From an uncultured Gammaproteobacteria bacterium (GTDB lineage: Bacteria > Patescibacteriota > Patescibacteriia > UBA1558 > UBA10009), in contig CAZPMS010000003.1 of assembly GCA_964588165.1 (NCBI GenBank), forward strand, positions 74,031-138,030: a stretch of DNA of 64,000 nucleotides. The letters run 5' to 3'. Numbering within the stretch: the first letter of the stretch is position 1; every line of letters begins with the position of its first letter. Positions 26,184 to 54,670 of the stretch are shown one piece after another. A model generated the notes under the pieces. The model saw only the letters and a program-made list of their open reading frames with translations, was not told the origin of the DNA and ran no database searches. The translations under genes were made by a program, and so were the position numbers.

Positions 26184-26185
26184 AA

Positions 26186-26965
26186 TTAAAATTTTATCCC
26201 GTCGGGCAATTCATGATACTTGCCCACTGTTTTTGAATCTTCTACCAGCATTTCCCAAGTTAATGATTCATTTTCTATAGGCCAGCCATCTTTTTTTGCA
26301 ACTTCTAAAACTTTCATGAATTTTTCTTTATTAATAGACCAGCGTTCTATATTATAATCAGCATAACCATCCCAAACTAAATTATATAACTCTTTAGAAA
26401 TATAGCCGACCTTTAAAGCATAATGGAAAAATTCTTCTATTAGCATTACTTGATGATGTCCAATATTATTTTCTTGGTACCAAGGAACTAAAGGATGGCC
26501 AGTATAATAAATAACTACCATATCGGTAACTTTTATACCTTCCTTTTCCAGATGTTCGGCAAATTTATTTTTGCCTTCGCCGGCACCGGTAGCGTCATCA
26601 ATTAAAATGGCTTTCTTCCAGGATTTATTGACCTGCCCCATTACAGCCGACTTTACTCCATAACCTTTTACTTCTTTCCTTAAGTATAGAATCGGCTTAT
26701 CCATTTCTAAAGAAACTGCTGTGGCCACCGGAAAGCCGCCTAACTCACAGCCAGCCAAAAGATCTACATCCAATTGGTTAACTATATAAGCAATCTTTTG
26801 AGCTATCAGTTTAATTGATAAAGGTTCAGAAAATAACCATCTGGTTTCCGGATAAAAAGGCACTGCTCCTAAGGCTGCAATTAAATAGCCAAACTTAAGT
26901 ATTTTTTTATCTATCATTAACTGAAAAACTTCCTCCTTGTCTTTTTGTGAAATATCAACTGCCAT
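26186..26965 (-). CDS. OPRT-like phosphoribosyltransferase-fold protein, paralog 3 (degenerate PRPP loop ILIDDATGAGEG)
   Basis: YLRKEVKGYGVKSAVMG and hydrophobic-DDA-T-G pattern; immediately downstream of the kinase-like gene. Confidence 0.55.
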   Translation of the reverse strand: MAVDISQKDKEEVFQLMIDKKILKFGYLIAALGAVPFYPETRWLFSEPLSIKLIAQKIAYIVNQLDVDLLAGCELGGFPVATAVSLEMDKPILYLRKEVKGYGVKSAVMGQVNKSWKKAILIDDATGAGEGKNKFAEHLEKEGIKVTDMVVIYYTGHPLVPWYQENNIGHHQVMLIEEFFHYALKVGYISKELYNLVWDGYADYNIERWSINKEKFMKVLEVAKKDGWPIENESLTWEMLVEDSKTVGKYHELPDGIKF

Positions 26966-26967
26966 AA

Positions 26968-27978: not shown

Positions 27979-28063
27979 TATCCATATCTTAACCCATTTT
28001 TAACAAAAAGAAAAACCGCGATCCGTAATGGTCGCGGCTATATTGATCATTGTCCAAAAGTAA

Positions 28064-28630
28064 TCAAGCGGATAAATTTGTCGCCCAAATTACTGCCTGT
28101 TTGGCATCTTCAAGAGAAAAAAATCGAATATTATCACTGTTGGTGTTTCTTATAAGGGTTTTGAAAGATAATTCCTCCAAATAACCCCAACCAACAATGG
28201 CAACTCTGACTGTTTGCTTCTTGGAAGCAAAGGCCAAAAACGGAAATAGATGAGCCAGCGTACCCATTTCTCCCGGAAAAAAAATGACTCCGTCGGCAGT
28301 GTCAACCAATGAGCCCAAGCGACTACCCCATGAATATGCAGGGTACCCCTCATGATATGTGCTGATAGAATGGCCATGGCTTGGAATTTTTCCCTTATCA
28401 CTCTTACAGAAATAGCTAACAACTTTCGCGCCTGACTGATGTGCCAATTCAACGATATTGCCGTGCGAGCCGGTTAAAACTTTAACTTTATTTTGCCGGC
28501 ACCACTCAAACACTTTCTTAAGCATGTCTGCTTCTGAATTGGAGGTTTTAGCACTGCCTTGAAAAAAGATTCCCTTTTTCACGAGATTCTCCTTTACTCT
28601 ATAGAGCTTTGCGTTGTTTTTAAATTTCAA
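28064..28630 (-). CDS. LOG/SLOG-family Rossmann protein (TIGR00730-like; putative nucleotide 5'-monophosphate nucleosidase)
   Basis: 188 aa. FFPGEMGTLAHLF resembles the LOG PGGxGTxxEL motif. Assignment is tentative. Confidence 0.45.
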   Translation of the reverse strand: MKFKNNAKLYRVKENLVKKGIFFQGSAKTSNSEADMLKKVFEWCRQNKVKVLTGSHGNIVELAHQSGAKVVSYFCKSDKGKIPSHGHSISTYHEGYPAYSWGSRLGSLVDTADGVIFFPGEMGTLAHLFPFLAFASKKQTVRVAIVGWGYLEELSFKTLIRNTNSDNIRFFSLEDAKQAVIWATNLSA

Positions 28631-28703: not shown

Positions 28704-29867
28704 TCATATTTTTCTAACAATACCTTTATTTGCATCAACCTCAACTAAATCTCCATCTTTCAAAACTTCAGTGGCTATTTTAGTTCCAACAATACAAGGG
28801 ATCTTTAATTCTCTGGAAATTACTGCGGCATGAGATAAGACACCACCGGTATTAGTTATAATGGCTCCACTCTTTCTAATGGCTGGCATATAATCAAGCG
28901 AAGTGCTAACTGTAACAATCACCTGGCCTTTTTTCATTTTTTTTATCTCATTATTAAAGGCTCTGCCCACATGATGAGGAATAATCTTAACTTTACCTTT
29001 AACATTGCCAGGAAAAGTAGTTTTGCCTCTAATTAAATTTAATTTGGGATTATTTTTAACTTTTGGCTTGGGTTTAGTAATTTTAATATTAAAATTACTT
29101 TTATTATAGACAAATTTATAATAATTTATTCTTTTATTTACTTTATTAATATCGGGTAATATATTTTTTAATAATAAATTACTTACCTCACTATATGTGC
29201 AATTTACAATTTGTAAATAATTTAATGAATTTCTTTTAGCAATTTCTCTATAAATCTTTCTGGCTTTTAAAAATGAATTTAACCATATTTTGTGCATTCG
29301 CAATCTTTCTTCTCCAATTTCTATAATTTTTAAAAATGTATTTTTGATGTCTGAATTTAAATTAAAATTTAATTTATCAAAATTTTTACTCAAAATATAT
29401 TCTATATTTTTATTTTTTGGTGCTGGGAAATCTTTTGCCAATTTTTTTAGCGCTAATTCATAATTCTCTGGTCGTATACATCTATATATTCCAAGTAAAC
29501 TAGAATAGTTATTATAAAATCTTGAATAATAATTAAATAATTCTTTATTATTTGTCTTCTTAAAATTTAATTTATCAATTTTTCGAATAAATTTAATATT
29601 CTGTTCTTTTATTTTTTTGATGTTCTTTGTAAAATCATTTAGAAGTTTTAAATTTGAATATATTTTTTCTCCCTTCTTGGCTACATACTTTTTTGTCTTA
29701 ATATCCATAAAAAAAGTAACTTTTTGATTTTCAGAAATAAAATAATGATTATTAAAACTATGGGCTAAAATTTCGCCTCTCTTTACAACATCACCAAACC
29801 AAACCATTTCAACCATGGTAAGAGGTAGATCTTCCATAGTCCATGTTTTTTCATATTTTTTTGACAT
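28704..29867 (-). CDS. Protein with C-terminal PEP-utilizing-enzyme mobile (phosphohistidine swivel) domain and uncharacterised N-terminal domain
   Basis: C-terminus GGVLSHAAVISRELKIPCIVGTKIATEVLKDGDLVEVDANKGIVRKI. No ATP-grasp and no PEP-binding TIM barrel is present. Confidence 0.65.
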   Translation of the reverse strand: MSKKYEKTWTMEDLPLTMVEMVWFGDVVKRGEILAHSFNNHYFISENQKVTFFMDIKTKKYVAKKGEKIYSNLKLLNDFTKNIKKIKEQNIKFIRKIDKLNFKKTNNKELFNYYSRFYNNYSSLLGIYRCIRPENYELALKKLAKDFPAPKNKNIEYILSKNFDKLNFNLNSDIKNTFLKIIEIGEERLRMHKIWLNSFLKARKIYREIAKRNSLNYLQIVNCTYSEVSNLLLKNILPDINKVNKRINYYKFVYNKSNFNIKITKPKPKVKNNPKLNLIRGKTTFPGNVKGKVKIIPHHVGRAFNNEIKKMKKGQVIVTVSTSLDYMPAIRKSGAIITNTGGVLSHAAVISRELKIPCIVGTKIATEVLKDGDLVEVDANKGIVRKI

Positions 29868-33341: not shown

Positions 33342-34262
33342 CTACCAAGTAATCCTTAAGTTAGTAGCCGATAGATAAGGATGCACACTACCTTCACCAT
33401 CAGCGATTTCCCAACCGAATACTACACCTTTATGACGTCCTCTAAAATCCTGCGGCCTGATAATAGACTTCCCCGGCCTGCTATAGCCTTTATCATCAAG
33501 ATAAACGGCATTGAACTTTTCATCATTTATATCATGGTAAACTCCAACCCCCCTCAACTGCATAAGAATTGTTTTGTAAAATCCTTCCAAAAGTGTTGAA
33601 GCTTTCCAGCCTTCTGGTAAAAGTTTTAGTTTGTTTTCCCAATGCATGGATCTTGTTGTAGAACCTTGTGAACCGGGAACACCATCCAGCCTAACCAAAT
33701 ACCAGCCCCGTTCAAGGAACGGCCAATCGGGTATGCCGAATAGCGCCTGGAAAAAATATTTTGATGTCTCTTTTTTAAAAAGTGACTTCACAATATCTTT
33801 TTCTATAGGTGGATTTTCCCAATCCAATCTTCCGGGTGAATAAAATAAAAAAGTATAGTGTCCTAAAGTCACGGATGACTTGTTATCTCCTTCGAAGGGT
33901 GATTCTTGATGAAGAAGATCCAAGATATTATCCGGGAGATGGGAATATATTTCCGCCAACTCCTCCTCGCTAAACCATAACCCAAAATATTGCGACCAGT
34001 GAAAGGGTAAAAAACAATTACGCTGTAAAAAATTCATCAGCTCATCTTCAATTTCTGGGGCTTTTTCTCCGCACCTGATTATAGCTTTGGCGATCTGATC
34101 AGCTGGGTAGTCAGTATGACCAACACCATCGCGGTTGCGAATGCTTTTTAAATGAAATGTTTTAACTCCGCGTCTCGCTAATTGTTCCAGTGTGGCATTC
34201 AACTCACTATTAGGGGTTTTTACAACACTTTCTACACTTGAAACACTTTTAGGCTCACTCAT
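33342..34262 (-). CDS. Hypothetical protein (about 307 aa from internal ATG preceded by aaggag SD); GC content about 45%, no recognised domain
   Basis: The track ORF 33342-34361 runs over its own predicted promoter. The MSEPKSVSS... start has a strong SD. Trp/Tyr-rich soluble protein. Confidence 0.45.
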   Translation of the reverse strand: MSEPKSVSSVESVVKTPNSELNATLEQLARRGVKTFHLKSIRNRDGVGHTDYPADQIAKAIIRCGEKAPEIEDELMNFLQRNCFLPFHWSQYFGLWFSEEELAEIYSHLPDNILDLLHQESPFEGDNKSSVTLGHYTFLFYSPGRLDWENPPIEKDIVKSLFKKETSKYFFQALFGIPDWPFLERGWYLVRLDGVPGSQGSTTRSMHWENKLKLLPEGWKASTLLEGFYKTILMQLRGVGVYHDINDEKFNAVYLDDKGYSRPGKSIIRPQDFRGRHKGVVFGWEIADGEGSVHPYLSATNLRITW

Positions 34263-34333
34263 GATGAGTTCTCCTTTTTCCTTGGTTGTTGGCTCTCCCT
34301 TTTTGGGCTCGCCGATGAAATGAACTAAACGTA

Positions 34334-34362
34334 CTTTATAAAAATTATTAACTTTTGTCAAA
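34334..34362 (-). promoter_or_regulatory. Predicted sigma70-like promoter (TTGACA-17-TAAAGT) for the 307-aa gene
   Basis: Minus-strand reading of 34334-34362: ttgacaaaagttaataatttttataaagt. Confidence 0.3.
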
Positions 34363-34502
34363 AACCAAAAAGCTGTGCCCTACTAGGCAATGTATAGGTT
34401 ATAAAATCTTGAGGAGAGAGATTTTCCTTGGAACAACACAGGGTTGCCAAAGAAAGATTTTATAGCCTAACATCTAGCAATGGGCACAGCTTTTTGGTTT
34501 TA
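34361..34502. repeat. Approximately 140-bp hairpin: 20-bp perfect inverted repeat enclosing a second imperfect inverted repeat. Candidate bidirectional terminator or MITE-like element.
   Basis: Outer arms aaaaaccaaaaagctgtgccc (34361-34381) and gggcacagctttttggtttt (34483-34502). Inner arms ggttataaaatctt and aagattttatagcc. Confidence 0.5.
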
Positions 34503-34518
34503 AGCTTTAGCTTAAAGA

Positions 34519-34740
34519 GCAAATATTGGAGGGCGAACCGGCCTGGTGGGCCAAAGGCCCACATTATGGCCGGCAGTGGCAATAAATTCCTGGAAAACCC
34601 GAGCTTACGCCAAGGTGATATATCTAGGTTTTACTGCCTTAAGCTCTCCTTTTTATTGAAAAAAATCGCTAATCGATTAATTTATAAGGTTAGCTCTCTC
34701 TCCCTCCAATATCTGCTCTTTTTTGCCTATTTTTCAAAGA
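34519..34740 (-). ncRNA. Candidate structured small RNA (about 220 nt to the closing stem; about 380 nt if it ends at the 34361-34502 hairpin) transcribed from its own promoter
   Basis: The 5' and 3' ends pair over 15 bp (gcagauauuggaggg with cccuccaauauuugc; the single G-U wobble only forms on the minus-strand transcript). Internal GC hairpin ccggcctggtgggccaaaggcccacattatggccgg (34539-34574). No coding potential on the minus strand. Confidence 0.3.
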
Positions 34741-34888: not shown

Positions 34889-35356
34889 CTACTGTTCACT
34901 ACAAAGCTCATTTAAGAGCGGTCTAATCTGCCATTCCAGCAATAGATTTAAGCCGTCTGGCAACCTCTCAATACTCCTTAGAGCAAGCCTGATATTTTCG
35001 ATAAGTTGTCTTCGAAACTTATCTTGTACTTCAGGAGAGCACTGGTTAAACAAATCAACCAGTTTACTCCATTTAACTACCAGTCTAGCCAGTTCCAGAG
35101 AGCCATCGGCCCTACCATCAGGACTTACTGATGAAGCATCTCGAATTGCATCGCCAAATTCGCCACTGAGCGGGTAGAAGCATAATTCTCTAAGCTGAAT
35201 TTCAGCCCGCCATGTTCTGTACCGTGCACGAATCCGACGATAGCGCTTTCCTGTTGATAAAGCCTTATCGAAAGATCTTCGAAAAGCCCAGACTGCATTC
35301 GTAAGCATAGCTCCTACCATAATGCCAAGTATGTCGCTAAGCAGTTCTGCATCCAT
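34889..35356 (-). CDS. Hypothetical protein (155 aa) with N-terminal TM helix and Arg-rich soluble part; GC about 48%
   Basis: ILGIMVGAMLTNAVWAF TM segment; no recognised domain. Confidence 0.4.
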   Translation of the reverse strand: MDAELLSDILGIMVGAMLTNAVWAFRRSFDKALSTGKRYRRIRARYRTWRAEIQLRELCFYPLSGEFGDAIRDASSVSPDGRADGSLELARLVVKWSKLVDLFNQCSPEVQDKFRRQLIENIRLALRSIERLPDGLNLLLEWQIRPLLNELCSEQ

Positions 35357-35532: not shown

Positions 35533-38133
35533 TTACTTGCTAATTAAAGCGCCATATGAATAATCTTTATCTAAAGCAGTTTCAAATTTTAAGAAAATAT
35601 CGCCCACTTCCATACCTTTATTGGTTGATGAATTATACCATTCCAAATCCATATTCTCCGGCAAATACAGCCGGCTTTCAAAACTGGAATTTATGACGCC
35701 TGATTGGTTTTGGACAAGCAAATTATAAGTATCTTGAGCTAAACTATCTCTAAAACCAATTGAGCCTAAAAATTTTTCAAACTCATTGGCATCTTCCACA
35801 AAATTCAATCTAAAAGGCAGTTCATAAGAAAAAGTTAAAGTCTTACTCTCCCCTACATCCAGCTGTAACCAATTGCCAAAAACTGTTTTACCAAATTCGT
35901 TATTAATACTGGTATTTGATTTTGCCTCAATTAAAGGCAAGCCGCTGATTCTTAATAAATCTCCATCCTGCTTAAAACCTGGGTAAACTTCTTTAAACAA
36001 TTCAGGATCTATAACATCATAACCCGTGGCTTCTATTAACTGGCTGCCTAAAGGAACATATACTCTAATGTATGAGTTGTTTCTGACTCTTTCAAAAACA
36101 TCTTCTGGATTGCCATTATGAGTTAATGTAATAGCCGCAGTGTTTACTAAAGAACCATCCTCTTGGATGTATGAAAAATGCTGGATGTTCTGATCAATCA
36201 CCAAATCGGTTTTGCCACCGGCAATATTTGTCCTAACCACCATTAAATAATCTTTTTCATAATCTTTAAGCTCGCCGGTCCAGCCAAACTTTTGAGCTTG
36301 GTTTTGTAAATTTTCTTTTGTGAAAAAAAGTTGAATATCTTTTTTACTGAAGCTTTCATTAAAAGTTAACAAAGTTGGCAAAAGCTGATCTGTTGGGATA
36401 TCCAATAGCCTATCAATTAAAACTGGCAATAGATCACCAATAATTTTTTTGGGTCGGTTTTCTTCCCTGTCGTATTCAAACTCTGCTTCGTGCTGTAAGG
36501 CTAAAATAACATTATCCGGTGTTAAAAGCTGGTTATAAGCCGGTAACTCTATATTACCTACCACTTCTAATATCTTAGGGAGTACCGTAGCATTAATTGC
36601 AATTACACCATCATAAGTCGGCCAGCCCGATTTTTCAAATGACCACAGTAACTTTTGTGCTGAGGTTGGAAAATCCGGCCACCAGTTATGATCCCAAGGC
36701 ATCCAAGGTGTTCCCAAAAGATGCATTGGCTGGGGTGAAATTATTTTTTCTAAAAAGTCATGTTTTAAATCATAAAGTCCACCACCTGGAACTTCCATGT
36801 TGGCAATCTTTCCATCATCAACATCAACTAAGGCAAAGCTACCCAAAAAACCGCCGGTACCTCTTAATTCGTTATTGTTTTGGAAAAGAAATAAATATCT
36901 TTTAGGAAAGTCGTAACCGAGTATGGCAAAGGTTGAATCAATAAGTTGGTTAACCACATTTAAACTTTCTAATAATTCCGGCAACCTGTTTTGAATTTGT
37001 TCAAAACTTTTCTGGTATTCACTAGGTAAGCTAGAGTGATCTATTTCTGAAAAAAGTTTTAAAGCGCTTTCTAAATCAATTATGGTAGAATGCAGGCTTT
37101 CTCTTACCTGCGGTAAAGAATCTGCTATGGCATTTTCTAGATCATCTGATTTATTTAAACTGGCAAAAGTTACAGAAAAATTGGTAGCGGCACTGGAAAT
37201 TAATTCGCCTGACTCTAAAAGCTTCTTACTATCAGCAACTTTTTTGCCGGCCACAGGCAGGCTTTCTAAAAATTCAACTAATGACTGGTTATACTGGAGT
37301 AAAACATCTTGTGCCTGTGAAAAATAGCTGCTTGCCTGGCTGAAGTTTATACTGGCTGAATTCCAATCGGAAAAAGAGATGGCTTCTACAGCCTGTTCAA
37401 ATTCATTAAAAGCTTCTTCGGTTGCACCCAGTACCTGACCCTTGGTTTTTACAACTCTATCATATAAATAAATCCCTCTAATTGGTAAAACAATCAGCAA
37501 CGCTATTAAAGCAAAATTAAGTGCAGTTTTTAAATTCTGCCACCGTAAATCAATAGGCGCTGATGGCGATTCAACTTTTCTTTTTTTGATCCTAGGTTTT
37601 GGCTTAAAAAAATCAACCACCACAGCTAAATTATCTTTGAAAAAATTCCTTTTTATTAAGCTAGGCTTAGGAATTTCTAATTTTGAACTTTCTATTCTAA
37701 ATTCTTTAAAAAGATGGTCGCTTTTATTTAATTTTGACTTTGCCTTCTTACCCTTGCTTAGATCTAAAGTATATAAAGAATTATTCAAGGATTGGAAATT
37801 AACACTTGATTTGTTTTTAGCCCTATTGCTGTAAGAGATATTAATTGAATTACGGTTTGTAACTTGTTTTTCGGATTGTTGGGGTTTAATAATTTGATCA
37901 GAATCTACTTGGCCATAAATAATTTCATCCAATTCATTAATAACTGGCTTTATTTTATCCTGATTTCTTTTTAATTCTTTATCCAGTTGTTGTGAATAAT
38001 AAATTTGTTCATCTATTAAAAGATTATCCACTTCTAAACTAAGGGCCTCGGACTCGTTTTTATTCAGATTCAAACTGACATCTTTTTTAGTTGTTTTTTT
38101 CGGCCTGCCTCTTTTTTTATTTTTTTGTATCAT
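35533..38133 (-). CDS. Large membrane-anchored DUF4012-domain protein with N-terminal cytoplasmic AT-hook (glycan-locus associated)
   Basis: N-terminus MIQKNKKRGRPKKTTKK; TM LNFALIALLIVLPIRGIYLY; DUF4012 core FQNNNELRGTGGFLGSFALVDVDDGKIANMEVPGGGLYDL. Confidence 0.7.
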   Translation of the reverse strand: MIQKNKKRGRPKKTTKKDVSLNLNKNESEALSLEVDNLLIDEQIYYSQQLDKELKRNQDKIKPVINELDEIIYGQVDSDQIIKPQQSEKQVTNRNSINISYSNRAKNKSSVNFQSLNNSLYTLDLSKGKKAKSKLNKSDHLFKEFRIESSKLEIPKPSLIKRNFFKDNLAVVVDFFKPKPRIKKRKVESPSAPIDLRWQNLKTALNFALIALLIVLPIRGIYLYDRVVKTKGQVLGATEEAFNEFEQAVEAISFSDWNSASINFSQASSYFSQAQDVLLQYNQSLVEFLESLPVAGKKVADSKKLLESGELISSAATNFSVTFASLNKSDDLENAIADSLPQVRESLHSTIIDLESALKLFSEIDHSSLPSEYQKSFEQIQNRLPELLESLNVVNQLIDSTFAILGYDFPKRYLFLFQNNNELRGTGGFLGSFALVDVDDGKIANMEVPGGGLYDLKHDFLEKIISPQPMHLLGTPWMPWDHNWWPDFPTSAQKLLWSFEKSGWPTYDGVIAINATVLPKILEVVGNIELPAYNQLLTPDNVILALQHEAEFEYDREENRPKKIIGDLLPVLIDRLLDIPTDQLLPTLLTFNESFSKKDIQLFFTKENLQNQAQKFGWTGELKDYEKDYLMVVRTNIAGGKTDLVIDQNIQHFSYIQEDGSLVNTAAITLTHNGNPEDVFERVRNNSYIRVYVPLGSQLIEATGYDVIDPELFKEVYPGFKQDGDLLRISGLPLIEAKSNTSINNEFGKTVFGNWLQLDVGESKTLTFSYELPFRLNFVEDANEFEKFLGSIGFRDSLAQDTYNLLVQNQSGVINSSFESRLYLPENMDLEWYNSSTNKGMEVGDIFLKFETALDKDYSYGALISK

Positions 38134-38284
38134 TAAAAAAATTTATCAACAGTTTTGTTAATTTATCCATTACCACTTTTTTGATTTATCAAGAAAGATA
38201 CTCTTAATTTATCCGCAATCTTAAAAGAATTTATAAAATCCAAATGTATTTTAAAAGTGGTAATGGATAAATTATAACACAAAT

Positions 38285-39379
38285 TTAACTTATACGACAA
38301 TATAAATTGTGGGTTTCTTTTATCATTTTCTGCCAACTGAATCTTTTAATATTTTCTCGGCCTTTGGCAATTAAAATCTTCCGTAATTTATCATCAGCTA
38401 TAACTTGCTCAATTGATTTTTTAATCTCTAAATCATTTTTAGGATTAAAGTAAATGGCTGAATCAGCTAAAACTTCCGGCAAACTTGAAGTATTAGATGA
38501 AACAACCGGCAAGCTATGGGCCTGGGCTTCTATAGCGGGTAAGCCAAAGCCTTCGTGTAAAGTGGGATAAATATAAGCCACAGCTTTAGCATACAGCCCG
38601 GAAAGCTCACTTTCCGAAACATAGCCGGTAAAAATTATATCCTTATAATCTTTAACAATCTTTTTTAACCTTTTATAAAAATAGTCCTGCCAACCAACTA
38701 AAACCAATTGGAATTTATTAGACGAGTTAAATTCTTTAAAAACATTTACCAGCCTTTCTAAATTTTTATGAGGATAAGCTGCGCCTACATATAATAAATA
38801 CGGCTTAGAAATATTAAAATGATTAATAGCAGTTGGTTGATGTTTATCTTTAAGAAAATAACCTTCGTAGGTAACTTCAATTTTTTCTGCAGGAACTTGG
38901 TAATAGCTTAAAATATCTTTTTTAACGAAATTTGTTGGCACTATAATTTTTTTTGAAGTTTTTACAGCATGCTTTAATATTGTTTTATAGCCCCAAAGCT
39001 TAATTTTATACTGCCATTTTGGCAAAGTGGTTGAACGGGAGCTCGGAAAATGATTAATAATTAAATCATGAATGGTAACAATATATTTATCACTGAAAAA
39101 AAGTGGTACATTAAAATGAGGAAAATGAACCAGATCCAGTTTTTCTTTTTTAATTATTTTTGGTACTAAAAACTGCTCCTTTAAACTATACCATCTGGCA
39201 TCTAGTAAAACCTTTTTAGCTTTGCTATTATTAAATTCGTCAAAATTATCTTTGCTTAAAAAAATTACGTATTTATTTTTTTTATCATACTCAAGCAGGC
39301 CGTCTACTAGCTTTTTTACGTACCTGCCCAAGCCCCTATGTTTAGTGCCATATAATCTGGCATCTATGCCTATTTTCAT
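38285..39379 (-). CDS. Glycosyltransferase family 4 (GT-B, RfaB-like)
   Basis: MKIGIDARLYGTKHRGLGRYVKKL... N-terminus; C-terminal EGFGLPAIEAQAHSLPVVSSNTSSLPEV GT4 motif. Confidence 0.8.
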   Translation of the reverse strand: MKIGIDARLYGTKHRGLGRYVKKLVDGLLEYDKKNKYVIFLSKDNFDEFNNSKAKKVLLDARWYSLKEQFLVPKIIKKEKLDLVHFPHFNVPLFFSDKYIVTIHDLIINHFPSSRSTTLPKWQYKIKLWGYKTILKHAVKTSKKIIVPTNFVKKDILSYYQVPAEKIEVTYEGYFLKDKHQPTAINHFNISKPYLLYVGAAYPHKNLERLVNVFKEFNSSNKFQLVLVGWQDYFYKRLKKIVKDYKDIIFTGYVSESELSGLYAKAVAYIYPTLHEGFGLPAIEAQAHSLPVVSSNTSSLPEVLADSAIYFNPKNDLEIKKSIEQVIADDKLRKILIAKGRENIKRFSWQKMIKETHNLYCRIS

Positions 39380-39440
39380 ATAACTACTAGTTTACGAATT
39401 AATACTAATATACAAATTGGATATTCTCTATAATTATTAT

Positions 39441-39561
39441 TTTATTTTCTTAATTATACCTTTATTAGTCCCGATATAAAATCGGGACGTCGCGAGGTTA
39501 ATATTTATATTTTCCTTACGATGCCTCGCTCCGCATCAACTTCAACTAAATCACCGTCTTT
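39441..39561. repeat. Perfect direct repeat copy 1 (about 121 bp), spanning the 3' end and 3' flank of paralog A. Copy 2 is at 40921-41041.
   Basis: Copy 1 (39441-39561) and copy 2 (40921-41041) share the identical sequence tttattttcttaattatacctttattagtcccgatataaaatcgggacgtcgcgaggttaatatttatattttccttacgatgcctcgctccgcatcaacttcaactaaatcaccgtcttt. The flank contains the hairpin tcccgat-ataaa-atcggga. Confidence 0.9.
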
Positions 39562-40920
39562 TAAAATTTTTGTTACAGCTTTAACACCGATTATTGTCGG
39601 AATCTTCAGTTCTCTGGAAATTATAGAAGCATGAGATAATACCCCGCCCTCTTCGGTTATAACTGCCTTGACTTTTTTTAATACAGGCAAATAATTTGGC
39701 TGTGTTGAACTTGCCACTAAAATATTTCCAGTTTTAACTTTTTTAAAATCATCTGGGCCGTTTACAATCACAGCCGATCCGGAAGCCTTGCCTTTATATG
39801 CTGTTTGGCCTTTTATGATTTTATTATTTATAGTATAAAATTTAATCTTTTTTGCAATTTTTTTTGATTCCTTGCCTTCATAAATGGTGGATTGGCTAAA
39901 ATTAGTAATATAAATGAAAGATTCCTTTCTTCTCTTTAGTAAACTTTGATCCACTTTTTTATTTTCTTCTAATAAGCTTATTACCTCAAAGACTGTAAAA
40001 TTAAAAATTTCTTTATAATTTTTTATATTGATTCTCTTAGATATTTCCTTCAATAAATTCATTAAATAAATTCCCGAACGATAAAACTCCTCGCTGCGAA
40101 AACTTCTAAAATAAATGGATTCATTAATAGTTTTTATTAAATAGATTAAAGATTTTTTATTTTTGTATTTACCCAATATTTTATTAAATCTTTCTTTTTG
40201 CTTATTTTTCTCATTTTGCGCTTTGGAAAGACTTTTTTCAGGATCTAATTTAGCTTGTCTTTTTATTCTATTTAAATAATAGCTCCCATTATAATAATCG
40301 CCGTAGTAACCAGTGTCTTTAAGCCAAGAATAATTAAAAATATGCTTTTCTAAATCTTTCTCAATATTTTGATTATTCTTGAATTTAATAGAGATTTTTA
40401 ATAATGAAATTTTTTCATCTAATTCACGAGAATTTTTTACTGGTGACAAAATCGTGCTTAATTCATCGTTATTAACCTGCTTAATTATCTCGTCAGTTAT
40501 TTTATCCTCAACATAAAGAGGTAATAATGCGTAAGCGGCAAAATTTGTCATCCTACTGATAAAATCCTTAATTAGTCTTGATAGTTGTTTGTTAGAATAA
40601 CTACTATAATTTTTAATTTTATAAACTCCCTTTAAAAAAATAATTAATTGTTTATGCTCTTTATAACAATGTGATAGTTGCTGATAAAGGAAATTTGGAC
40701 TTTTTTTTAAATAATTCCATAATCTATTTTGCATTTCTTGCCAATCTTTTTTAGAAAAAACTACCTTATTATCAATCGCCCCAACATGCCTCATCCAGTA
40801 TTTAATATTTTCCATTTTTACTGATTGAATGGCAAAACTTCTAAAAACAACATGGACATACCATAAGCTCCTTTGTCTTGTATGTACATAATGCCAGTTT
40901 ATTTTAGACAGATCAATCAT
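39505..40920 (-). CDS. PEP-utilizing-enzyme swivel-domain protein (471 aa), tandem paralog A
   Basis: C-terminus ...EGGVLSHASIISRELKIPTIIGVKAVTKILKDGDLVEVDAERGIVRKI. The last 19 codons and the 64-bp 3' flank are identical to paralog B. Confidence 0.65.
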   Translation of the reverse strand: MIDLSKINWHYVHTRQRSLWYVHVVFRSFAIQSVKMENIKYWMRHVGAIDNKVVFSKKDWQEMQNRLWNYLKKSPNFLYQQLSHCYKEHKQLIIFLKGVYKIKNYSSYSNKQLSRLIKDFISRMTNFAAYALLPLYVEDKITDEIIKQVNNDELSTILSPVKNSRELDEKISLLKISIKFKNNQNIEKDLEKHIFNYSWLKDTGYYGDYYNGSYYLNRIKRQAKLDPEKSLSKAQNEKNKQKERFNKILGKYKNKKSLIYLIKTINESIYFRSFRSEEFYRSGIYLMNLLKEISKRINIKNYKEIFNFTVFEVISLLEENKKVDQSLLKRRKESFIYITNFSQSTIYEGKESKKIAKKIKFYTINNKIIKGQTAYKGKASGSAVIVNGPDDFKKVKTGNILVASSTQPNYLPVLKKVKAVITEEGGVLSHASIISRELKIPTIIGVKAVTKILKDGDLVEVDAERGIVRKI

Positions 40921-41041
40921 TTTATTTTCTTAATTATACCTTTATTAGTCCCGATATAAAATCGGGACGTCGCGAGGTTAATATTTATATTTTCCTTACG
41001 ATGCCTCGCTCCGCATCAACTTCAACTAAATCACCGTCTTT
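40921..41041. repeat. Perfect direct repeat copy 2 (see 39441-39561)
   Basis: Identical to 39441-39561 on direct reading of both lines. Confidence 0.9.
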
Positions 41042-42436
41042 GAAAACTTTGGTGGCAACTAAAGTATTTACAACACAAGGCTTGCCTAATTCTCTGGAAA
41101 CTATAGCAGCATGGCAAGTAATGCCACCAACTTCCGTAACCACAGCCACTGATTTTTTCATAGCGGTAACAAAATCAACAGATGTAGAGGGAACCACTAA
41201 CACTTCGCCATCTTTCATTTTAGATAATTCAGAGATGCTGCTTATTACTCTGGCCTTGCCTTTAGCTTTACCAGGAGAAGCACCTAAGCCGCAAAGTTCT
41301 TTTTTATTACCTAATGATACTTTTGGCTTATCTTTTAAACATTCTTGATTAATCTTAGAGTGCAAATTTTTAGCCTGCTTGCCGGTGATTATCTTTTGTT
41401 TGTCTAAATTTATAACTTGAACAGCAAACGACTGCCTTTCTTTAATAATTTTTTTAAAATTACTATTACTGATTTTACCTACAAGGCCTTTCCTGATTTC
41501 CTGGGGTGTTAAGAATTTAAGCTCACTAAAAGTAACTTTAAATTCCTCAGCGATTCTTTCATAAATAGGCTTGGCTTTATGAACAATATAACTGGTATGC
41601 AAATCCACTCTGGTTCTGATTAAAGTAAAATATCTTAACATATTAATATCTTTAAGTAATCTACCTGAAAGGCTAAGCTCTTTTATGGTTTTTTTATTTA
41701 ATAACTTTGTCTTATTTGAATAATTTTTTATGTCAGACATCCTTTTTTTAATATCTTTAGCCTTTAGTTCTTGGTTTAGTCTAAACATTAGATCTTCCAT
41801 TTCCCACGGTTCATTGTCATACCATACAGGAATCCATTCAAATTTCTTAAGATGTTTTTTGAATATTGGTTTTATATCATCAATTAAGCCACCTTTAAAC
41901 TTGCTGACAATTTCTAAAAAATTAAGCTCTTCTTTTTGCGTTTCTAAAAATTCCCAAGGCGTGGTTACAGCAATCAATTTGTTAGTAAACTGCTCTTCCT
42001 TTCTTTGTTTCTTTAAAATATCTTTAAACTTTTTACTAATTCTTTCTAAATATATTTCATCAATGGCATGATTAATATCACCAATTGGTTCAGCTAAAAA
42101 CAATAGGTTCCAATATTTGTTAAATGATTTTAAAAGTTTTGCCCGATTAATATTTTTGATATCGGCTAAATTATTATTAAGAAATTTATTAAGATTTCTA
42201 AAATTCTTTTCATGATTTTGGCCGTATCTTTTGATATAATATGGATCTTTATCAATTCTAGTCCACCAAATTTTATGCATCCTCTTATAATCAGAAGTAT
42301 AAGTATAATAATGAGCCAATAAATCCTTATGTACTCTAATTACTCTCTTAAAAACCACTTCTCGCCTGTCCCAATAATAAAGGCTGTAATGAAGTATGCT
42401 GATAGACCATGATCCAAACTTATGATATTTTGACAT
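40985..42436 (-). CDS. PEP-utilizing-enzyme swivel-domain protein (483 aa), tandem paralog B
   Basis: C-terminus ...GGITCHAAIVSRELGKPCVVNTLVATKVFKDGDLVEVDAERGIVRKI. Confidence 0.65.
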   Translation of the reverse strand: MSKYHKFGSWSISILHYSLYYWDRREVVFKRVIRVHKDLLAHYYTYTSDYKRMHKIWWTRIDKDPYYIKRYGQNHEKNFRNLNKFLNNNLADIKNINRAKLLKSFNKYWNLLFLAEPIGDINHAIDEIYLERISKKFKDILKKQRKEEQFTNKLIAVTTPWEFLETQKEELNFLEIVSKFKGGLIDDIKPIFKKHLKKFEWIPVWYDNEPWEMEDLMFRLNQELKAKDIKKRMSDIKNYSNKTKLLNKKTIKELSLSGRLLKDINMLRYFTLIRTRVDLHTSYIVHKAKPIYERIAEEFKVTFSELKFLTPQEIRKGLVGKISNSNFKKIIKERQSFAVQVINLDKQKIITGKQAKNLHSKINQECLKDKPKVSLGNKKELCGLGASPGKAKGKARVISSISELSKMKDGEVLVVPSTSVDFVTAMKKSVAVVTEVGGITCHAAIVSRELGKPCVVNTLVATKVFKDGDLVEVDAERGIVRKI

Positions 42437-42439
42437 ATT

Positions 42440-43564
42440 TTAAATTGTTGATTCAAATATATTTAAAATCTCTTTAGCTGTGTTTTGCCAATCAAACTTT
42501 TTAACTTGCTGATAGCTTTTGTTAATCAAATTTTGACGCAACTGATCATCGATTAGTATTTGATTCATTGCTGACGTGATTTCTTTAACATTATACGGAT
42601 CAACAAGTATGGCTGCGTCCCCTACCACTTCGGGTAAAGATGAATTAGTTGAAGTTATAACCGGACAGCCAACACTCATAGCTTCCAATGGCGGAAAACC
42701 AAAACCCTCATAAAAACTGGGCCAGATAAATAAGTCAGCCAGTTGATACAAGGCTGACCTATCTGCCGGATCAACATAATCTATAAACTTGATTTTATCT
42801 TTGGCTGATGACCTGCTGGCTTTTTTATAAATCTTCCTATAAAGCCAGCCTTTGCCTCCGCCAATTACTAAACTATAACCTGAATCAGTTATTTGTTCAA
42901 AAGCAGATATGATTCCTTCTACATTTTTCCTGGGTTCCAAGGTTCCAAGGTAAAGAATAAATTTATGAGGTAAACTATATTTCTCTTTAATTAGTCCCTC
43001 GTCCCTCGTCCCTCGTCCTACATTCACGCCTGAATATATAACACTAACTTTATTCTCAGGAATACCATAAACCTCAACCAGATCTTTTTTAGTACTATTA
43101 GAAACTGCAATAATTTTATCAGCTGACTTTAATTTCTGGCCGGGCTTTACAACCTTATGCCAAAAACTCATTTTTTTTGAATAAGCCCAAGGAATTTTTT
43201 TAAAGGATAAATCATGAACTGTAATAATCGATTTACAATTTTTAGAAATGGACCAAAAGTTTAAATTAGGAAACCAAAATAAATCACAACCGCCAACCAT
43301 TTTATCCAACTTTGGCCAATTAAAAAAAGTTATTGCTAAATTCAATAACTTATTGGGATAATTAAACTTATATATTTTTACATTAGGAAACTTTTTTAGC
43401 TCTTCAATTTTAGTTTGATCTGATGATCTAGCTGAATTAAAAAAAAGTTTATATTGATTTTTTTGATCAATTTCTAATAAATTCTTTAAAACCTCATAAG
43501 TATAAATACCAACTCCGGTTAAATTGTTAGCCAAAAGCGGCCTAATATCAATACCAATTATCAT
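42440..43564 (-). CDS. Glycosyltransferase family 4
   Basis: MIIGIDIRPLLANNLTGVGIYTYE... and C-terminal EGFGFPPLEAMSVGCPVITSTNSSLPEV. Contains an in-frame (GTCCCTC)x3.5 heptamer repeat at about 42990-43018. Confidence 0.8.
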   Translation of the reverse strand: MIIGIDIRPLLANNLTGVGIYTYEVLKNLLEIDQKNQYKLFFNSARSSDQTKIEELKKFPNVKIYKFNYPNKLLNLAITFFNWPKLDKMVGGCDLFWFPNLNFWSISKNCKSIITVHDLSFKKIPWAYSKKMSFWHKVVKPGQKLKSADKIIAVSNSTKKDLVEVYGIPENKVSVIYSGVNVGRGTRDEGLIKEKYSLPHKFILYLGTLEPRKNVEGIISAFEQITDSGYSLVIGGGKGWLYRKIYKKASRSSAKDKIKFIDYVDPADRSALYQLADLFIWPSFYEGFGFPPLEAMSVGCPVITSTNSSLPEVVGDAAILVDPYNVKEITSAMNQILIDDQLRQNLINKSYQQVKKFDWQNTAKEILNIFESTI

Positions 43565-45600: not shown

Positions 45601-46989
45601 TCATGAAGCCTTCCTTTTCCCCAACACCGCTCTTGGTGTTTTAAATAATATTTGAATATCCAAGCCTAAGCTCCAGTTTTCTACATAATAAGTATCTAGC
45701 CGCACCTCTTCTTCCCAAGCCAGATCGCTTCTGCCTGATACCTGGGCCATGCCGGTTATACCGGGCTTTATGGCTAATAATTTTTTATGACGAACTTGAT
45801 ATTGGGCTACCTCTTGCGGTTCATGGGGCCTGGGCCCAACCAAGCTCATCTTGCCAAAAATGACATTAACCAGTTGAGGAAGTTCATCTAAACTCCACTT
45901 TCTGATAAATTTGCCAAACTTGGTTACCCTGGGATCTGTTTCCATTTTAAATAATGGTCCGTCGGCTCGTTCATTTTGAGTTTGCAGATCAGGTTTTAAG
46001 CTATGGGCATCTTTAACCATTGATCTGAATTTATACATTTTAAACTTTTTACCGTGCGAACCAATCCGTTCCAGCTTAACAATCATCGGACCTTTGGAAG
46101 TAAAAATAACTATTAGACCAATCATTAATAATAATGGTGATAATATGACGAGTAGAGTTAGTGCTAATAAAAAATCAAAAATCCTTTTTAAAATTCGGCC
46201 CCAACCGTCTAATCTGGTCTGCCTAACTTCTATTAAGGGTACCCCGCCGATAGTGGAGAGGTCAAAATTAATCAGCTTAGTTTCTAAAAGTGATGCAGCA
46301 TACTTATAATTAAGATTATGTTCTACGCAAAAATTAACTAAATTGGCTTTTTCACCATTAGGTAAATTTGAATCGGCTAAAATAACATCATCAATTTTAT
46401 TTTCCTTAATTAAATCTGTTAATTGGCCTTCTACCTGTTCGGTAAAACCAGAATAAACACCAACAACCCTAAAACCAAAGGAAGGCTTATGTTTAAATTC
46501 ATCTATAATATCCTGAGAATTTTTGCTGGCTCCAATAATTATAACTTGGCGAATCCCGATGCTTTTTTTATAAAAAATCTTTTTTATGTAATGAATTATA
46601 ACTCTTTCAAAACTAATAATAATTATGGATAAAAGCCAGCCGGTTAAAATAATTAATCTGGAAGAGAATAACTGAAAATTAAAAAAGAAAGCTACTACGA
46701 TAATTAAGGTAGCAGCGCTGCAAGCCACAAAAATTTTAGAAAAATCACTCAGCAAGCTGGTCCGTTTAATATTGTATAGGCCGTTTAAAGCGAAAATCGG
46801 CAGCCAGGCAATAGCCACAACAATAATAATCTGGAAAAAATCCGTATAGCCCATTTCAAACACTACCGGCCTAATTTCGGTAACAAATGATTCAAAACGT
46901 AAAAAATAGGCCAAACTACCAGCCAATAAAAGGGCCAAATAATCCAAAGGGACTAAGATAGCGGTAAATGTCAATTCGAGCTTTTTCAT
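45601..46989 (-). CDS. Polyprenyl-phosphate glycosyl-1-phosphate transferase (WbaP/CpsE-like bacterial sugar transferase), priming enzyme of the glycan locus
   Basis: C-terminal catalytic domain with RSMVKDAH...MYKFRSM and DELPQLVNVIFGKMSLVGPRPHEP; N-terminal multi-TM region. Confidence 0.85.
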   Translation of the reverse strand: MKKLELTFTAILVPLDYLALLLAGSLAYFLRFESFVTEIRPVVFEMGYTDFFQIIIVVAIAWLPIFALNGLYNIKRTSLLSDFSKIFVACSAATLIIVVAFFFNFQLFSSRLIILTGWLLSIIIISFERVIIHYIKKIFYKKSIGIRQVIIIGASKNSQDIIDEFKHKPSFGFRVVGVYSGFTEQVEGQLTDLIKENKIDDVILADSNLPNGEKANLVNFCVEHNLNYKYAASLLETKLINFDLSTIGGVPLIEVRQTRLDGWGRILKRIFDFLLALTLLVILSPLLLMIGLIVIFTSKGPMIVKLERIGSHGKKFKMYKFRSMVKDAHSLKPDLQTQNERADGPLFKMETDPRVTKFGKFIRKWSLDELPQLVNVIFGKMSLVGPRPHEPQEVAQYQVRHKKLLAIKPGITGMAQVSGRSDLAWEEEVRLDTYYVENWSLGLDIQILFKTPRAVLGKRKAS

Positions 46990-47079: not shown

Positions 47080-47497
47080 CTCATTCAAATTTAGATGATC
47101 GCCCCGACGTTACCCTTATCGGGTAAGCCGGGGAGGAAAGTCCGAACACCAAGGTTTCCCGCTCTTAAGTGGGAGGATAATTGGTAACACCAACCGTTTG
47201 ATCTGTGAGGATTAAATAGGACAAGTGCAACAGAAAATATTTCTATTTGTGGGCCAAAGAGTATACTCTCCGCAAATTAAGAGTGAAAAGGTCAGATGAT
47301 TAGCTGACCCGTTCCTATAGTGATATAGGAAAAGAGGTAAACTTCTATCCGGTGCAATCCCAAATTTGGTAGGGAGCATGATCCCGACGGCAACGTCGGG
47401 GCTAGATAGATGATCATCCTTCGACTCACTTGAGTTCGCTCAGGACAAGTCGTAGACAGAATTCGGCTTATTAATTTGAGTGGGCAATAAAAAACCG
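47080..47497 (+). ncRNA. rnpB: RNase P RNA (bacterial type A-like)
   Basis: P4 5' strand gggAGGAAAGTCCGaacacc and P4 3' strand ACAGAAttCGGCTTAtt. P1 pairing is gctcattcaaatt with aatttgagtgggc. P3-like hairpin gttaccc-ttatc-gggtaa. Followed by an intrinsic terminator. Confidence 0.8.
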
Positions 47498-48684: not shown

Positions 48685-49698
48685 TTATTTGGCAAATAAA
48701 ATGCTTCTTTTATAAGACTCAAGGTTATCCAAAGCTACGCCCGTGCCCTTGGCCACACATAATAAAGATTCGTCAGCTACATACGCCGGCACGCCGGTAA
48801 CCTGCGAAAGCAAGTTATCCATATTCCTTAAAAGCGAACTGCCGCCGGTTAAAACCATGCCTTTATCCATAACATCAGCAGAAAGTTCTGGCGGAGTTTT
48901 AAATAAAACTGACTTCACAGCTGAAATTACGCCCTGAAGTTCATTTTGCAGGGCCTCTGTAACATCATCAGAATTTACTTCAATAGTTCTAGGTAATCCG
49001 GAAATCATATCCCGCCCCCTAATATTCATTTTAAACTTTTCTTCATCATCCAAATACATGGCTGAACCTATTTTAATTTTAATTTCCTCAGCTGTGCCTT
49101 CGCCAATTGCCAAACCATACTTTTTACGGATGAATTCAGCTATTGCAGCATCAAACTTGGTGCCGCCAATCCTGATAGAAGTATTGGCCACAATTCCGCC
49201 TAAAGAAATAACAGCGATTTCTGATGTGCCACCGCCCATATCCACCACCATATGCCCGGAAGCAGAACCAATAGGGATGTTTGCTCCAATAGCGGCAGCA
49301 ATAGGCTCTTTAATAATATAAGCGGCCCTGGCACCGGCTGCTACCGTAGCATCTATTACAGCCCTTCTTTCTGTAGAAGTAATTCCGGCCGGTACAGCAA
49401 TCATTACCTCTGGCCTAAATAATTTTGCTCCGCCTACCGCTTTATTAATAAAATACCTTAACATGCTTTCGGTAGTTTTATAATCGGCAATTACTCCATC
49501 TCTTAAAGGACGTTTGGCTACAATTGTATCTGGTGTTCTCCCTAACATTTCCTTTGCTTCATCGCCCACAGCTAAAACCTTCTTATCTAAAGAAGAAATA
49601 GCTACCACCGAAGGTTCATTAATTATAATTCCCCTTTTGGGAATATGAACCAAGGTATAAGTAGTGCCTAAATCTATGCCGATCTTTTTATTAAACAT
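48685..49698 (-). CDS. mreB: Rod shape-determining actin homolog MreB (paralog 1)
   Basis: [29 protein letters not shown] and [16 protein letters not shown] actin-fold motifs. Confidence 0.9.
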
Positions 49699-53626: not shown

Positions 53627-54670
53627 TTAATCTTCAGAGGCAGAAGGCAATAAAACTTCTTTTAGATTTTCTAAATCCTCTAAAACAATCCCCGTTCCCC
53701 TTACAACAGCAGTTAAAGGATCATCTACTAAATGAACCGGCACTCTGGTTTCTTGGGCAATTAATTTATCCAAGCCTCTTAAATTAGCTCCTCCACCAGA
53801 TAAAATTAATCCCCTTTCAAAAATATCGGCAACCAGTTCTGGAGGGGTTTTTTCTAAAGTATCCCGGATAGCTTCTACAATCTGCCTAACTGACCTTATA
53901 ATAGCTTCTCTTATTTGAATATTAGAAACTATTACTTCTTTAGGCAGGCCGGAAATTAAATCCCTGCCTCTCATATTTGTTTCTTGTTTATTATTATCCG
54001 AAGTAACTGTGGCAATCCTTATTTTTATTTCTTCAGCTGTTTTTTGCCCCAAAAGTAAATTAAAATTTTCCCGTGCATACTGGATAATGTTTTCATCAAG
54101 TTCATTGCCGGCAATAGTAAGTGAATTGGAAGTAACCACTCCGCCTAAAGAAATAACTGCGATTTCTGTGGTGCCGCCACCAACTTCTACTATCATAAAA
54201 CCGGATGGCTCTTGAATCGGTATTCTGGCTCCAATAGCGGCTGCCAATGGCTGTTCTATCAAAAATACTTCTCTGGCACCGGCTGACTTAGTGGCATCTT
54301 CTACTGCTTTCCTTTCCACCTCTGTAACATTTAAAGGGATGCCAATAACAATCCTAGGCCTTGGTATTACACTAAAGCTTTCTTGGTGAATTTTATTAAT
54401 AAAATGCTTTATCATTTTTTCAGTAACTTCAAAATCCGAAATTACGCCATTTACCAAAGGAGTGGTGATTTTAATATGGGGAGGCGTTTTGCCTACCATT
54501 TTTTTAGCATCTTCACCAATGGAAATTATCTGATCGTTTCTGGTATTAATAGCCACTACAGAAGGTTCAGAAATTACGATGCCTTTATCCTTAACATAAA
54601 CAAGAGTATTGGTGGTTCCTAAATCAATACCTATATCGTGTGAAAATTTTCCAAAAAGTTTGTTTAACAT
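53627..54670 (-). CDS. mreB: MreB (paralog 2), head of the mreBCD-PBP2 operon
   Basis: [29 protein letters not shown]; [16 protein letters not shown]. Confidence 0.9.
   Translation of the reverse strand: MLNKLFGKFSHDIGIDLGTTNTLVYVKDKGIVISEPSVVAINTRNDQIISIGEDAKKMVGKTPPHIKITTPLVNGVISDFEVTEKMIKHFINKIHQESFSVIPRPRIVIGIPLNVTEVERKAVEDATKSAGAREVFLIEQPLAAAIGARIPIQEPSGFMIVEVGGGTTEIAVISLGGVVTSNSLTIAGNELDENIIQYARENFNLLLGQKTAEEIKIRIATVTSDNNKQETNMRGRDLISGLPKEVIVSNIQIREAIIRSVRQIVEAIRDTLEKTPPELVADIFERGLILSGGGANLRGLDKLIAQETRVPVHLVDDPLTAVVRGTGIVLEDLENLKEVLLPSASED

Follow-up and report, generated by a model that had tools for sequence, protein, structure and literature searches.

Three swivel-domain proteins from a probable CPR bacterium as likely acceptor components of split RPH-family dikinases

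What can a protein do that carries the phosphohistidine swivel domain of the phosphoenolpyruvate (PEP)-utilizing enzymes without the ATP-grasp and PEP-binding TIM-barrel domains that normally accompany it, and how did two such genes come to have identical 3′ ends? These questions are raised by three genes, here called PEP1, PEP2 and PEP3, in a 64,000-nt stretch of DNA (the window; contig CAZPMS010000003.1, positions 74,031 to 138,030) with a G+C content of 34%, whose host is probably a candidate phyla radiation (CPR) bacterium. A first-pass annotation of the same DNA had described the three products as swivel-only proteins with an unrecognised N-terminal part. Sequence comparison, structural modelling and analogy with known systems now point to another picture, which we regard as likely: PEP1, PEP2 and probably PEP3 would be the acceptor components of split small-molecule dikinases of the rifampin phosphotransferase (RPH) family. 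The genes and their swivel-coding segments, the latter with coordinates derived from residue numbers, are as follows.

39505–40920, minus strand: PEP1, 471 amino acids (aa); helical substrate domain resembling the rifampin (RIF)-binding domain at about aa 1–365, followed by a C-terminal phosphohistidine swivel domain.
39523–39735, minus strand: swivel-coding segment of PEP1, His430 codon at 39631–39633.
40985–42436, minus strand: PEP2, 483 aa; same two-domain layout as PEP1, of which it is an old paralog; PF00391 at aa 408–478.
41003–41215, minus strand: swivel-coding segment of PEP2, His442 codon at 41111–41113.
28704–29867, minus strand: PEP3, 387 aa; solitary paralog of the short class, directly downstream of lepA; PF00391 at aa 312–382.
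28722–28934, minus strand: swivel-coding segment of PEP3, His346 codon at 28830–28832.

PF00391 is the sole significant Pfam family in the three proteins (E values of 8e-24, 1.5e-22 and 6.8e-22 for PEP1, PEP2 and PEP3), and the match covers their last 75 residues or so, at the extreme C-terminus. The same Pfam search gave no match to PPDK_N (ATP-grasp, PF01326) or to PEP-utilizers_C (TIM barrel) in any of them, so that the swivel-only architecture and the lack of both companion domains, as first annotated, stand. The phosphocarrier histidine, whose presence in all paralogs had been left open, is found in each (His430, His442 and His346) within the motif GGxxxH(A/S)A, which reads GGVLSH in PEP1, GGITCH in PEP2 and GGVLSH in PEP3. 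This catalytic residue is invariant in the 42 sequences of our family alignment; among 181 modules from related loci, the histidine and the arginine that follows it are present in every one, and the GG motif is kept in 179–180. Positions 9–479 of the family hidden Markov model (HMM) align to PEP2, and PEP3 is matched in two overlapping pieces. Pfam matches to Epimerase_2 in PEP2 (E = 0.06) and PEP3 (E = 0.009) are far below the cut-off and lie in or just before the swivel region; they were rejected as spurious, and the PF02350 label on a relative (P0023) was treated likewise. No anti-phage defence model of PADLOC matched PEP1, PEP2 or PEP3.

The N-terminal 350–400 residues turned out not to be unrecognisable. 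Residues 228–469 of PEP1 align to the C-terminal ~240 residues of three NCBIfam models, namely PRK06241 ('PEP synthase-like'), rifamycin phosphotransferase and PigC. A family profile built from 42 members aligned, by its positions 161–478, residues 522–877 of RPH-Lm with an E value of about 1e-33, whereas true PEP synthases and pyruvate phosphate dikinases (PPDKs) were matched over the swivel only. The AlphaFold2 model of PEP1, computed on the family alignment, has a mean pLDDT (predicted local distance difference test score) of 92.9 and a pTM (predicted template modelling score) of 0.88, and displays a nearly all-helical domain of ~360 residues followed by an alpha/beta swivel domain; the closest solved structure to this PEP1-type fold is RPH. 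By profile, NCBIfam and model, the PEP1-type N-terminal domain and the rifampin-binding domain of RPH are homologous. The N-terminal domain belongs neither to the ATP-grasp nor to the PEP-binding TIM-barrel type, either of which would have made these proteins ordinary PEP synthase-like enzymes, as the first-pass annotation had considered. The sole N-domain motif conserved family-wide, [RKQ]-D-x-R-K, aligns with Arg666-Glu667-x-x-Lys670 of RPH, a block that is essential for the second phosphotransfer in RPH-Lm (PMC4844700).

By analogy with RPH and with the two-component system HpeHI, a separate ATP-grasp protein would use ATP to phosphorylate the swivel histidine (His430, His442 or His346). 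The charged swivel domain would then swing back to the helical domain of its own chain, and the phosphate would be transferred to a hydroxyl of the small molecule bound there. The dikinases of the RPH type turn ATP into AMP, Pi and a phosphorylated substrate. The substrate domains of the three window paralogs are almost unrelated (16–23% identical) whereas their swivel domains are conserved (48–53%), and the three most likely act on different substrates.

The relatives of these proteins provide indications on the phosphoryl donor. We compared 75 loci, namely the window and 74 related ones, counting neighbours within 10 kb. An ATP-grasp is encoded in 24 of the 75 loci, standing alone in 14 and fused to the N-terminus of multi-module family proteins in 10. 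The stand-alone PPDK_N genes located beside swivel genes encode 245–357 aa: in one locus (L009) a family gene and a PPDK_N gene of 275 aa overlap at the stop of the former, and in the array that contains the closest homolog of PEP1 (P0002) six family genes are followed, at the end, by a PPDK_N gene of 314 aa. Such neighbours, together with the HpeHI-type precedent (PMC12167813), speak for the partner in trans that had been proposed from the sequence. No stand-alone PEP-binding TIM barrel was found near any array, the profile built from true PEP synthases having matched only true PEP synthases (in L082–L090), and a TIM-barrel partner was rejected on this ground. Since ATP-grasp domains lie near the relatives or are fused with them and no TIM barrel does, the donor is likely ATP and not PEP.

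Several observations weigh against the assignment of PEP1–PEP3 to split dikinases. Using the N-terminal 330 aa of P0085 as a probe, tblastn detected no ATP-grasp gene in the 64-kb window (noise only, E ~1), the 10 kb beyond its right end contain none either, and 51 of the 75 loci have none within 10 kb. The block-9 motif of RPH is only partly kept (R-S-F-R-S-E in PEP1, R-T-R-V-D in PEP2, not alignable in PEP3), and the N-terminal domain measures ~360 aa as compared to more than 430 aa in RPH or in HpeH (71 kDa). NCBIfam models of the PRK08296 group, of ~600 aa, match the swivel region alone. For PEP3, the N-domain model is not confident (mean pLDDT 61, below 50 for aa 1–170), and the alignment of short-class members is poor. 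Finally, the literature gives no substrate or activity for members of the CPR/DPANN group.

The missing gene also allows for another reading, in which these proteins would have no partner at all and would either shuttle phosphate among small molecules or serve as non-catalytic, regulatory or structural swivel proteins. The lack of an ATP-grasp over ~74 kb and in the 51 loci is in line with it; HpeH alone passes phosphate from 4-phosphoacetophenone to acetovanillone (PMC12167813), and a Bacillus pyruvate kinase (2e28) has a C-terminal swivel without the usual partners. However, the near-perfect conservation of the His, GG and Arg positions across the 181 modules argues for catalysis through a phosphohistidine, and 24 loci have an ATP-grasp next to a family gene or fused with one, among them the array of the closest homolog of PEP1. 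We therefore regard partner-less proteins as rather improbable. With the split dikinase as the preferred reading, and the ATP-grasp not being encoded in the window, the partner would reside elsewhere in the genome.

The family to which PEP1–PEP3 belong is large. Our search recovered hundreds of proteins of ~470–500 aa in which PF00391 is the lone annotated domain; a profile restricted to the N-terminal domains of the three window paralogs retrieved 818 cluster representatives at E ≤1e-3 among 1.84 billion proteins, and at least 573 relatives occur among the species representatives of GTDB. About two thirds of the 80 loci that we fetched carry CPR or DPANN labels. Local HMM analysis revealed same-strand tandem arrays, mostly in genomes of CPR bacteria and DPANN archaea. 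In the largest (L007/L008, positions 1–21455), at least 13 genes are packed into 21 kb of a 656-kb contig; this array runs past both ends of the locus and its copies make up ~3% of the DNA of that contig. Other arrays contain 10 genes (L022 and L072), nine (L062) or six (L005, 5504–14405), and further ones are found in L028/L033. Several database proteins are two-module fusions, and giant single open reading frames (ORFs) of 1311–3761 aa begin with one ATP-grasp and continue with two to nine modules, each made of a helical domain plus a swivel. The multi-module ORFs are listed here.

L036, 812–12097: 3761 aa, one ATP-grasp then nine module matches.
L075, 1–8814: 2937 aa, eight module matches; the ORF is cut at the contig end.
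L065, 5565–11624: 2019 aa, multi-module ORF.
L026, 6947–12931: 1994 aa, multi-module ORF.
L077, 4205–8404, and L030, 384–4319: further multi-module ORFs.

A single donor serving many acceptors is the simplest reading that the arrays, the polyproteins and the shared ATP-grasp suggest. We found no description in the literature of arrays or polyproteins of this family in CPR or DPANN, and as far as that literature goes this organisation is an undescribed variant. The median identity of the N-terminal domains is 16% within loci and 15% between genomes, whereas that of the swivels is 51–54%. Recurrent neighbours include TrmB-type regulators and ABC exporters (11 loci each), EamA transporters (4 loci), hexapeptide acyltransferases, HAD, HD and histidine-phosphatase-like proteins, and an acylphosphatase. 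Phosphatase-type genes lie in or beside arrays at L014 9011–9727, L038 13299–14255, L057 6928–7548, L009 9428–10000 and L005 14708–14983. Such neighbours hint that phosphorylated products are processed further.

The same data bear on a special case of the split-dikinase reading, in which each paralog would inactivate a different toxic small molecule from hosts or competitors, as RPH does with rifampin. That RPH is the closest solved structure fits this idea, as do the contrast within loci between the hypervariable substrate domain (median 16%) and the conserved swivel (54%), the tandem amplification, which would suit diversification under selection, the ABC exporter and EamA transporter genes, and the rph-like hits listed by a survey of the CPR resistome (PMC8651080). 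However, the rifampin-contacting residues cannot be traced in our proteins, and distant clades of the RPH family confer no rifampin resistance (PMC4844700). Paralogs of one array are as divergent mutually (16%) as they are from those of other genomes (15%), so that the arrays are old and not the product of a recent arms race. Moreover, the HAD, HD, His_Phos_1 and acylphosphatase genes inside arrays fit metabolism better than detoxification. Taken together, a role of this kind seems unlikely, the broader assignment to split dikinases of varied substrates being preferred.

A second special case concerns the location of PEP1 and PEP2, which are placed between genes of surface-glycan synthesis. 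The neighbouring genes, given for context, are as follows.

42440–43564, minus strand: glycosyltransferase of family 4 (GT4); stop 3 nt from the PEP2 start.
38285–39379, minus strand: GT4 glycosyltransferase, 125 nt downstream of PEP1.
45601–46989, minus strand: Bac_transf (WbaP-like) gene.
35533–38133, minus strand: DUF4012 gene.

The gene context first described, with glycosyltransferases on both sides and a WbaP-like transferase nearby, is thus correct, and the genes lie on a single strand all the way from the WbaP-like transferase to DUF4012. PEP1 and PEP2 might accordingly phosphorylate a sugar, a lipid-linked intermediate or a polymer made by the GT4 and WbaP-like gene products. Locally, this glycan-modifying role, which the first-pass annotation had favoured, draws on the common orientation with the flanking genes, the 3 nt that separate the stop of the upstream GT4 gene from the start of PEP2, the GT4 genes on either side and the proximity of Bac_transf and DUF4012. 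Elsewhere, the L005 array adjoins GT2, DUF4012, MreB and GT4 genes, with similar neighbours in L019 and L066; the P0002 array contains an epimerase and an NTP_transferase; a cytidylyltransferase-like gene lies beside the pair in L009; and the TrmB-type regulator found in 11 loci is of the 'sugar-specific' type. Across the family the proposal does not hold: among the 75 loci no conserved glycan context was found, GT4 being present within 10 kb in just 7, DUF4012 in 4 and Bac_transf in 3, the window included, frequencies that, on a rough estimate and not against a computed background, hardly differ from what chance would give in genomes of this kind. Where MreB, GT4 and DUF4012 genes occur together, the arrangement may reflect no more than synteny between related CPR genomes; PEP3 lies outside any glycan locus, and the large arrays L007, L022, L062 and L072 have no glycosyltransferase neighbours. 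Phosphorylation of glycans is therefore an unlikely function for this pair, and we retain the general reading of split dikinases.

Other elements were observed in and around this cluster. A bacterial class A RNase P RNA (47086–47482, plus strand, 163 bits) lies between the WbaP-like gene and a GT4 gene of the minus-strand envelope cluster, and a perfect 22-nt inverted repeat (38159–38180 / 38253–38274, with a 72-nt spacer) separates the GT4 gene at 38285–39379 from the DUF4012 gene. Two MreB paralogs (48685–49698 and 53627–54670) flank GreA, PBP2 and MreC genes, the first paralog being the immediate neighbour of the glycosyltransferase cluster, an arrangement shared with the related locus L005.

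The second question raised by the locus is that of the identical 3′ ends. The perfect repeat seen by the first-pass annotation is real, with a length of 123 bp and not 121 bp: positions 39439–39561 are identical to 40919–41041, at an offset of 1480 bp. The conserved hairpin noticed in the flank is likewise present in both copies.

39439–39561, minus strand: repeat copy 1, with the PEP1 stop and last 18 codons (57 nt) and 66 nt of 3′ flank.
40919–41041, minus strand: repeat copy 2, with the PEP2 stop and last 18 codons, the entire 64-nt PEP2-PEP1 spacer and the 'AT' of the PEP1 start codon.
39468–39488, minus strand: hairpin GTCCCGA-N7-TCGGGAC of copy 1, with a 7–8 bp G+C-rich stem and a loop of 5–7 nt.
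40948–40968, minus strand: same hairpin in copy 2, 28 nt upstream of the PEP1 start.
39480–39453 and 40960–40933: promoter-like TTTATA-16-TATAAT sites overlapping the hairpin copies, with a weak consensus match only.

The hairpin sequence is absent elsewhere in the window. As RNA, the segment has a predicted folding energy of -18.9 kcal/mol (z = -3.3); it has no Rfam match and, lacking a U tract behind the hairpin, did not score as an intrinsic terminator.

Recent duplication and gene conversion had both been proposed for the repeat, and the two can be separated by the sequence around it. PEP1 and PEP2 are identical at 31% overall, with 16% in the N-terminal domain and 48% in the swivel, whereas PEP1 shares 51% and 46% identity with P0002 and P0003 from other genomes. 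In L005, a PEP2-like gene is again the upstream neighbour of the PEP1 ortholog, so that the duplication predates those lineages. Judged from their sequences, PEP1 and PEP2 are therefore old paralogs. Inside the tract, however, their third codon positions are identical at 19 of 19 sites, as compared to 16 of 31 same-amino-acid codons in the 246 nt directly upstream; for PEP1 and PEP3, the equivalent terminal codons have a common third base in 9 of 17 cases. The 3′ flank shows the same contrast, with 100% identity between PEP1 and PEP2 and 32% with the flank of PEP3. Such an abrupt step from saturation to zero divergence indicates a recent non-reciprocal exchange. The 123-bp identity is a recent tract of gene conversion or ectopic recombination between old paralogs, the conversion part of the earlier proposal being upheld and recent duplication being ruled out by the paralog and ortholog identities and by the synonymous sites. 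The exchange was probably seeded in the stretch coding for KDGDLVEVDA, which is nearly invariant family-wide, and ran through the downstream spacer.

Exact tracts were also found at or near the 3′ ends of swivel-coding regions in other loci: 138 bp in L028, 92 bp in L022, 68 bp in L075, 62 bp in L036 and 57 bp in L005. In two neighbouring genes of L022, a 100-bp tract begins 5 nt ahead of the stop and covers 94 nt of the flank.

A repeat of this sort could in principle be an assembly artefact, which the first-pass annotation had kept in mind, or the trace of a very recent tandem duplication. A short contig of the Joint Genome Institute (JGI; L004, 1595 nt) corresponds to 39443–41037, starting in repeat copy 1 and ending in copy 2, and assemblers thus do break there. 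However, three assemblies deposited separately (L001, L002 and L003) all show the two copies in the identical arrangement. These represent nearly one strain, with 0–1 mismatch over 4.6–21 kb of the region, so that they confirm the structure although they are not independent lineages. The 31% identity of PEP1 and PEP2, the saturation of synonymous sites directly outside the tract and the PEP1 orthologs of other genomes, which are closer to PEP1 than PEP2 is, all speak against a fresh duplication. We consider both versions of this explanation to be highly improbable. The ends of L004 are consistent with the break that an assembler is expected to make at a true repeat; they possibly also reflect a population with varying copy numbers of the 1480-bp PEP1 unit, in which the direct repeats could mediate loss or gain of PEP1. 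The tract itself illustrates cleanly how gene conversion acts between old paralogs.

A wider hypothesis, which we advance only tentatively, would bring these observations together. Organisms that are mostly ultra-small symbionts (CPR bacteria and DPANN archaea) might possess a 'kinase battery': many diversified acceptor modules, encoded as tandem arrays, polyproteins or dispersed genes, would all receive their phosphate from one ATP-grasp, and recurrent conversion would homogenise their swivel ends while the substrate domains drift apart to ~16% identity. The window would then be a small instance with dispersed genes, of which two may have been recruited to the envelope-glycan operon. If this is true, the phosphorylation of many small molecules, scavenged or hostile, would be modular in genome-reduced organisms. 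Very small genomes invest heavily in the family, which is apparently unstudied, and its substrates could explain how symbionts process host-derived metabolites or toxins. Database names such as 'PEP synthase / pyruvate phosphate dikinase' and 'PEP-utilizing enzyme' wrongly imply a gluconeogenic capacity in CPR and DPANN.

The window has some further features that are distinct from the PEP genes. Between 33300 and 35500, the G+C content rises to 0.40–0.48 as compared to a window mean of 0.34, and ORFs 33342–34361 and 34889–35356 have no Pfam or PADLOC match. This stretch contains a long hairpin with perfect 20-nt arms (34361–34380 / 34482–34501), an inverted repeat (34514–34536 / 34699–34721) and a 47-nt motif present at 34740 and 35416 (81% identity). 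Foreign origin is one possibility for this DNA, an unannotated RNA another; the hits to miRNA precursors, the only ones from Rfam, are spurious. Downstream of PEP3, the minus-strand region 25473–28630 encodes a LOG/lysine-decarboxylase-like protein, a kinase-like protein of the aminoglycoside phosphotransferase (APH) family and two proteins with phosphoribosyltransferase domains, which may form a small salvage cluster. Just beyond the right end of the window (L091, 1–10000) are located an IS1595-family transposase, a Y1 (IS200-like) transposase, a P63C-domain protein and a 531-aa ORF without Pfam match.

The closest parallels among known systems are HpeHI, CreHI and PpsAB (phenylphosphate synthase), which constitute a two-component subfamily of dikinases (Dexter et al. 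2025, PMC12167813). HpeH is composed of RIF-binding-like and swivel domains and its histidine is essential, HpeI is the ATP-grasp component, HpeH alone is able to pass phosphate between products and substrates, and HpeH, CreH and PpsA are ~45% identical among themselves (PMC12167813). By this published description, PEP1 and PEP2 resemble the acceptor subunits in having a RIF-binding-like helical domain and a C-terminal swivel without ATP-grasp, and the stand-alone PPDK_N genes adjacent to their relatives recall the separate ATP-grasp proteins of ~30–40 kDa. An architecture of the HpeH type having been published, that of PEP1 and PEP2 is not undescribed, contrary to what had first been noted (PMC12167813). 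The differences lie elsewhere. PEP1 and PEP2 (471–483 aa) are smaller than HpeH (~640 aa, 71 kDa), no partner gene is adjacent to them, and no carboxylase or aromatic-catabolism gene was found among the 20 neighbouring proteins scanned. In addition, the known systems pair one acceptor with one ATP-grasp, whereas the PEP family also forms arrays and polyproteins.

RPH itself was assigned by Stogios et al. (2016) to the 'small-molecule dikinases', a wide family in which the middle domain diverges fast (PMC4844700). As in RPH-Lm (PDB 5hv1, 5fbs, 5fbt and 5fbu), a helical substrate domain precedes the swivel His domain in PEP1 and PEP2. In contrast to RPH-Lm, where an N-terminal ATP-grasp is fused, PEP1–PEP3 have none and would correspond to a split form, not the canonical one. 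Identity between RPH-Lm and the PEP proteins is 13–15%, the PEP helical domain is shorter, the rifampin-binding residues are not traceable, and the Glu and Lys of the RPH-Lm block are not in register in PEP1–PEP3.

The swivel of PEP synthase and PPDK is homologous to that of our proteins and gave the best sequence scores (8a8e, E = 1e-50), and the His phosphocarrier chemistry would be shared. These enzymes consist of an N-terminal ATP-grasp, a middle swivel and a C-terminal PEP/pyruvate TIM barrel, of which PEP1–PEP3 match the swivel alone. The same holds for Enzyme I of the PEP-dependent sugar phosphotransferase system (PTS), made of an HPr-binding subdomain, a swivel and a TIM barrel: PtsI models and structures match the PEP proteins over swivel residues alone.

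The prodiginine ligases PigC, RedH and HapC belong to the same superfamily of ATP-grasp, helical and swivel domains, and the PigC NCBIfam model aligns to aa 202–481 of PEP2 (E = 1.6e-24). These are single-chain proteins of ~880 aa that activate an aldehyde for condensation; in contrast, no biosynthetic cluster surrounds the PEP genes. Finally, the L-glutamine kinase Cj1418, which acts in the synthesis of the capsule O-methyl phosphoramidate of Campylobacter jejuni, is a PPDK-like kinase with ATP-grasp and swivel-His domains engaged in surface-glycan modification. Unlike PEP1–PEP3, Cj1418 is a single polypeptide with its own ATP-grasp; it nevertheless provides a precedent for the glycan-type role that had been proposed for PEP1 and PEP2.

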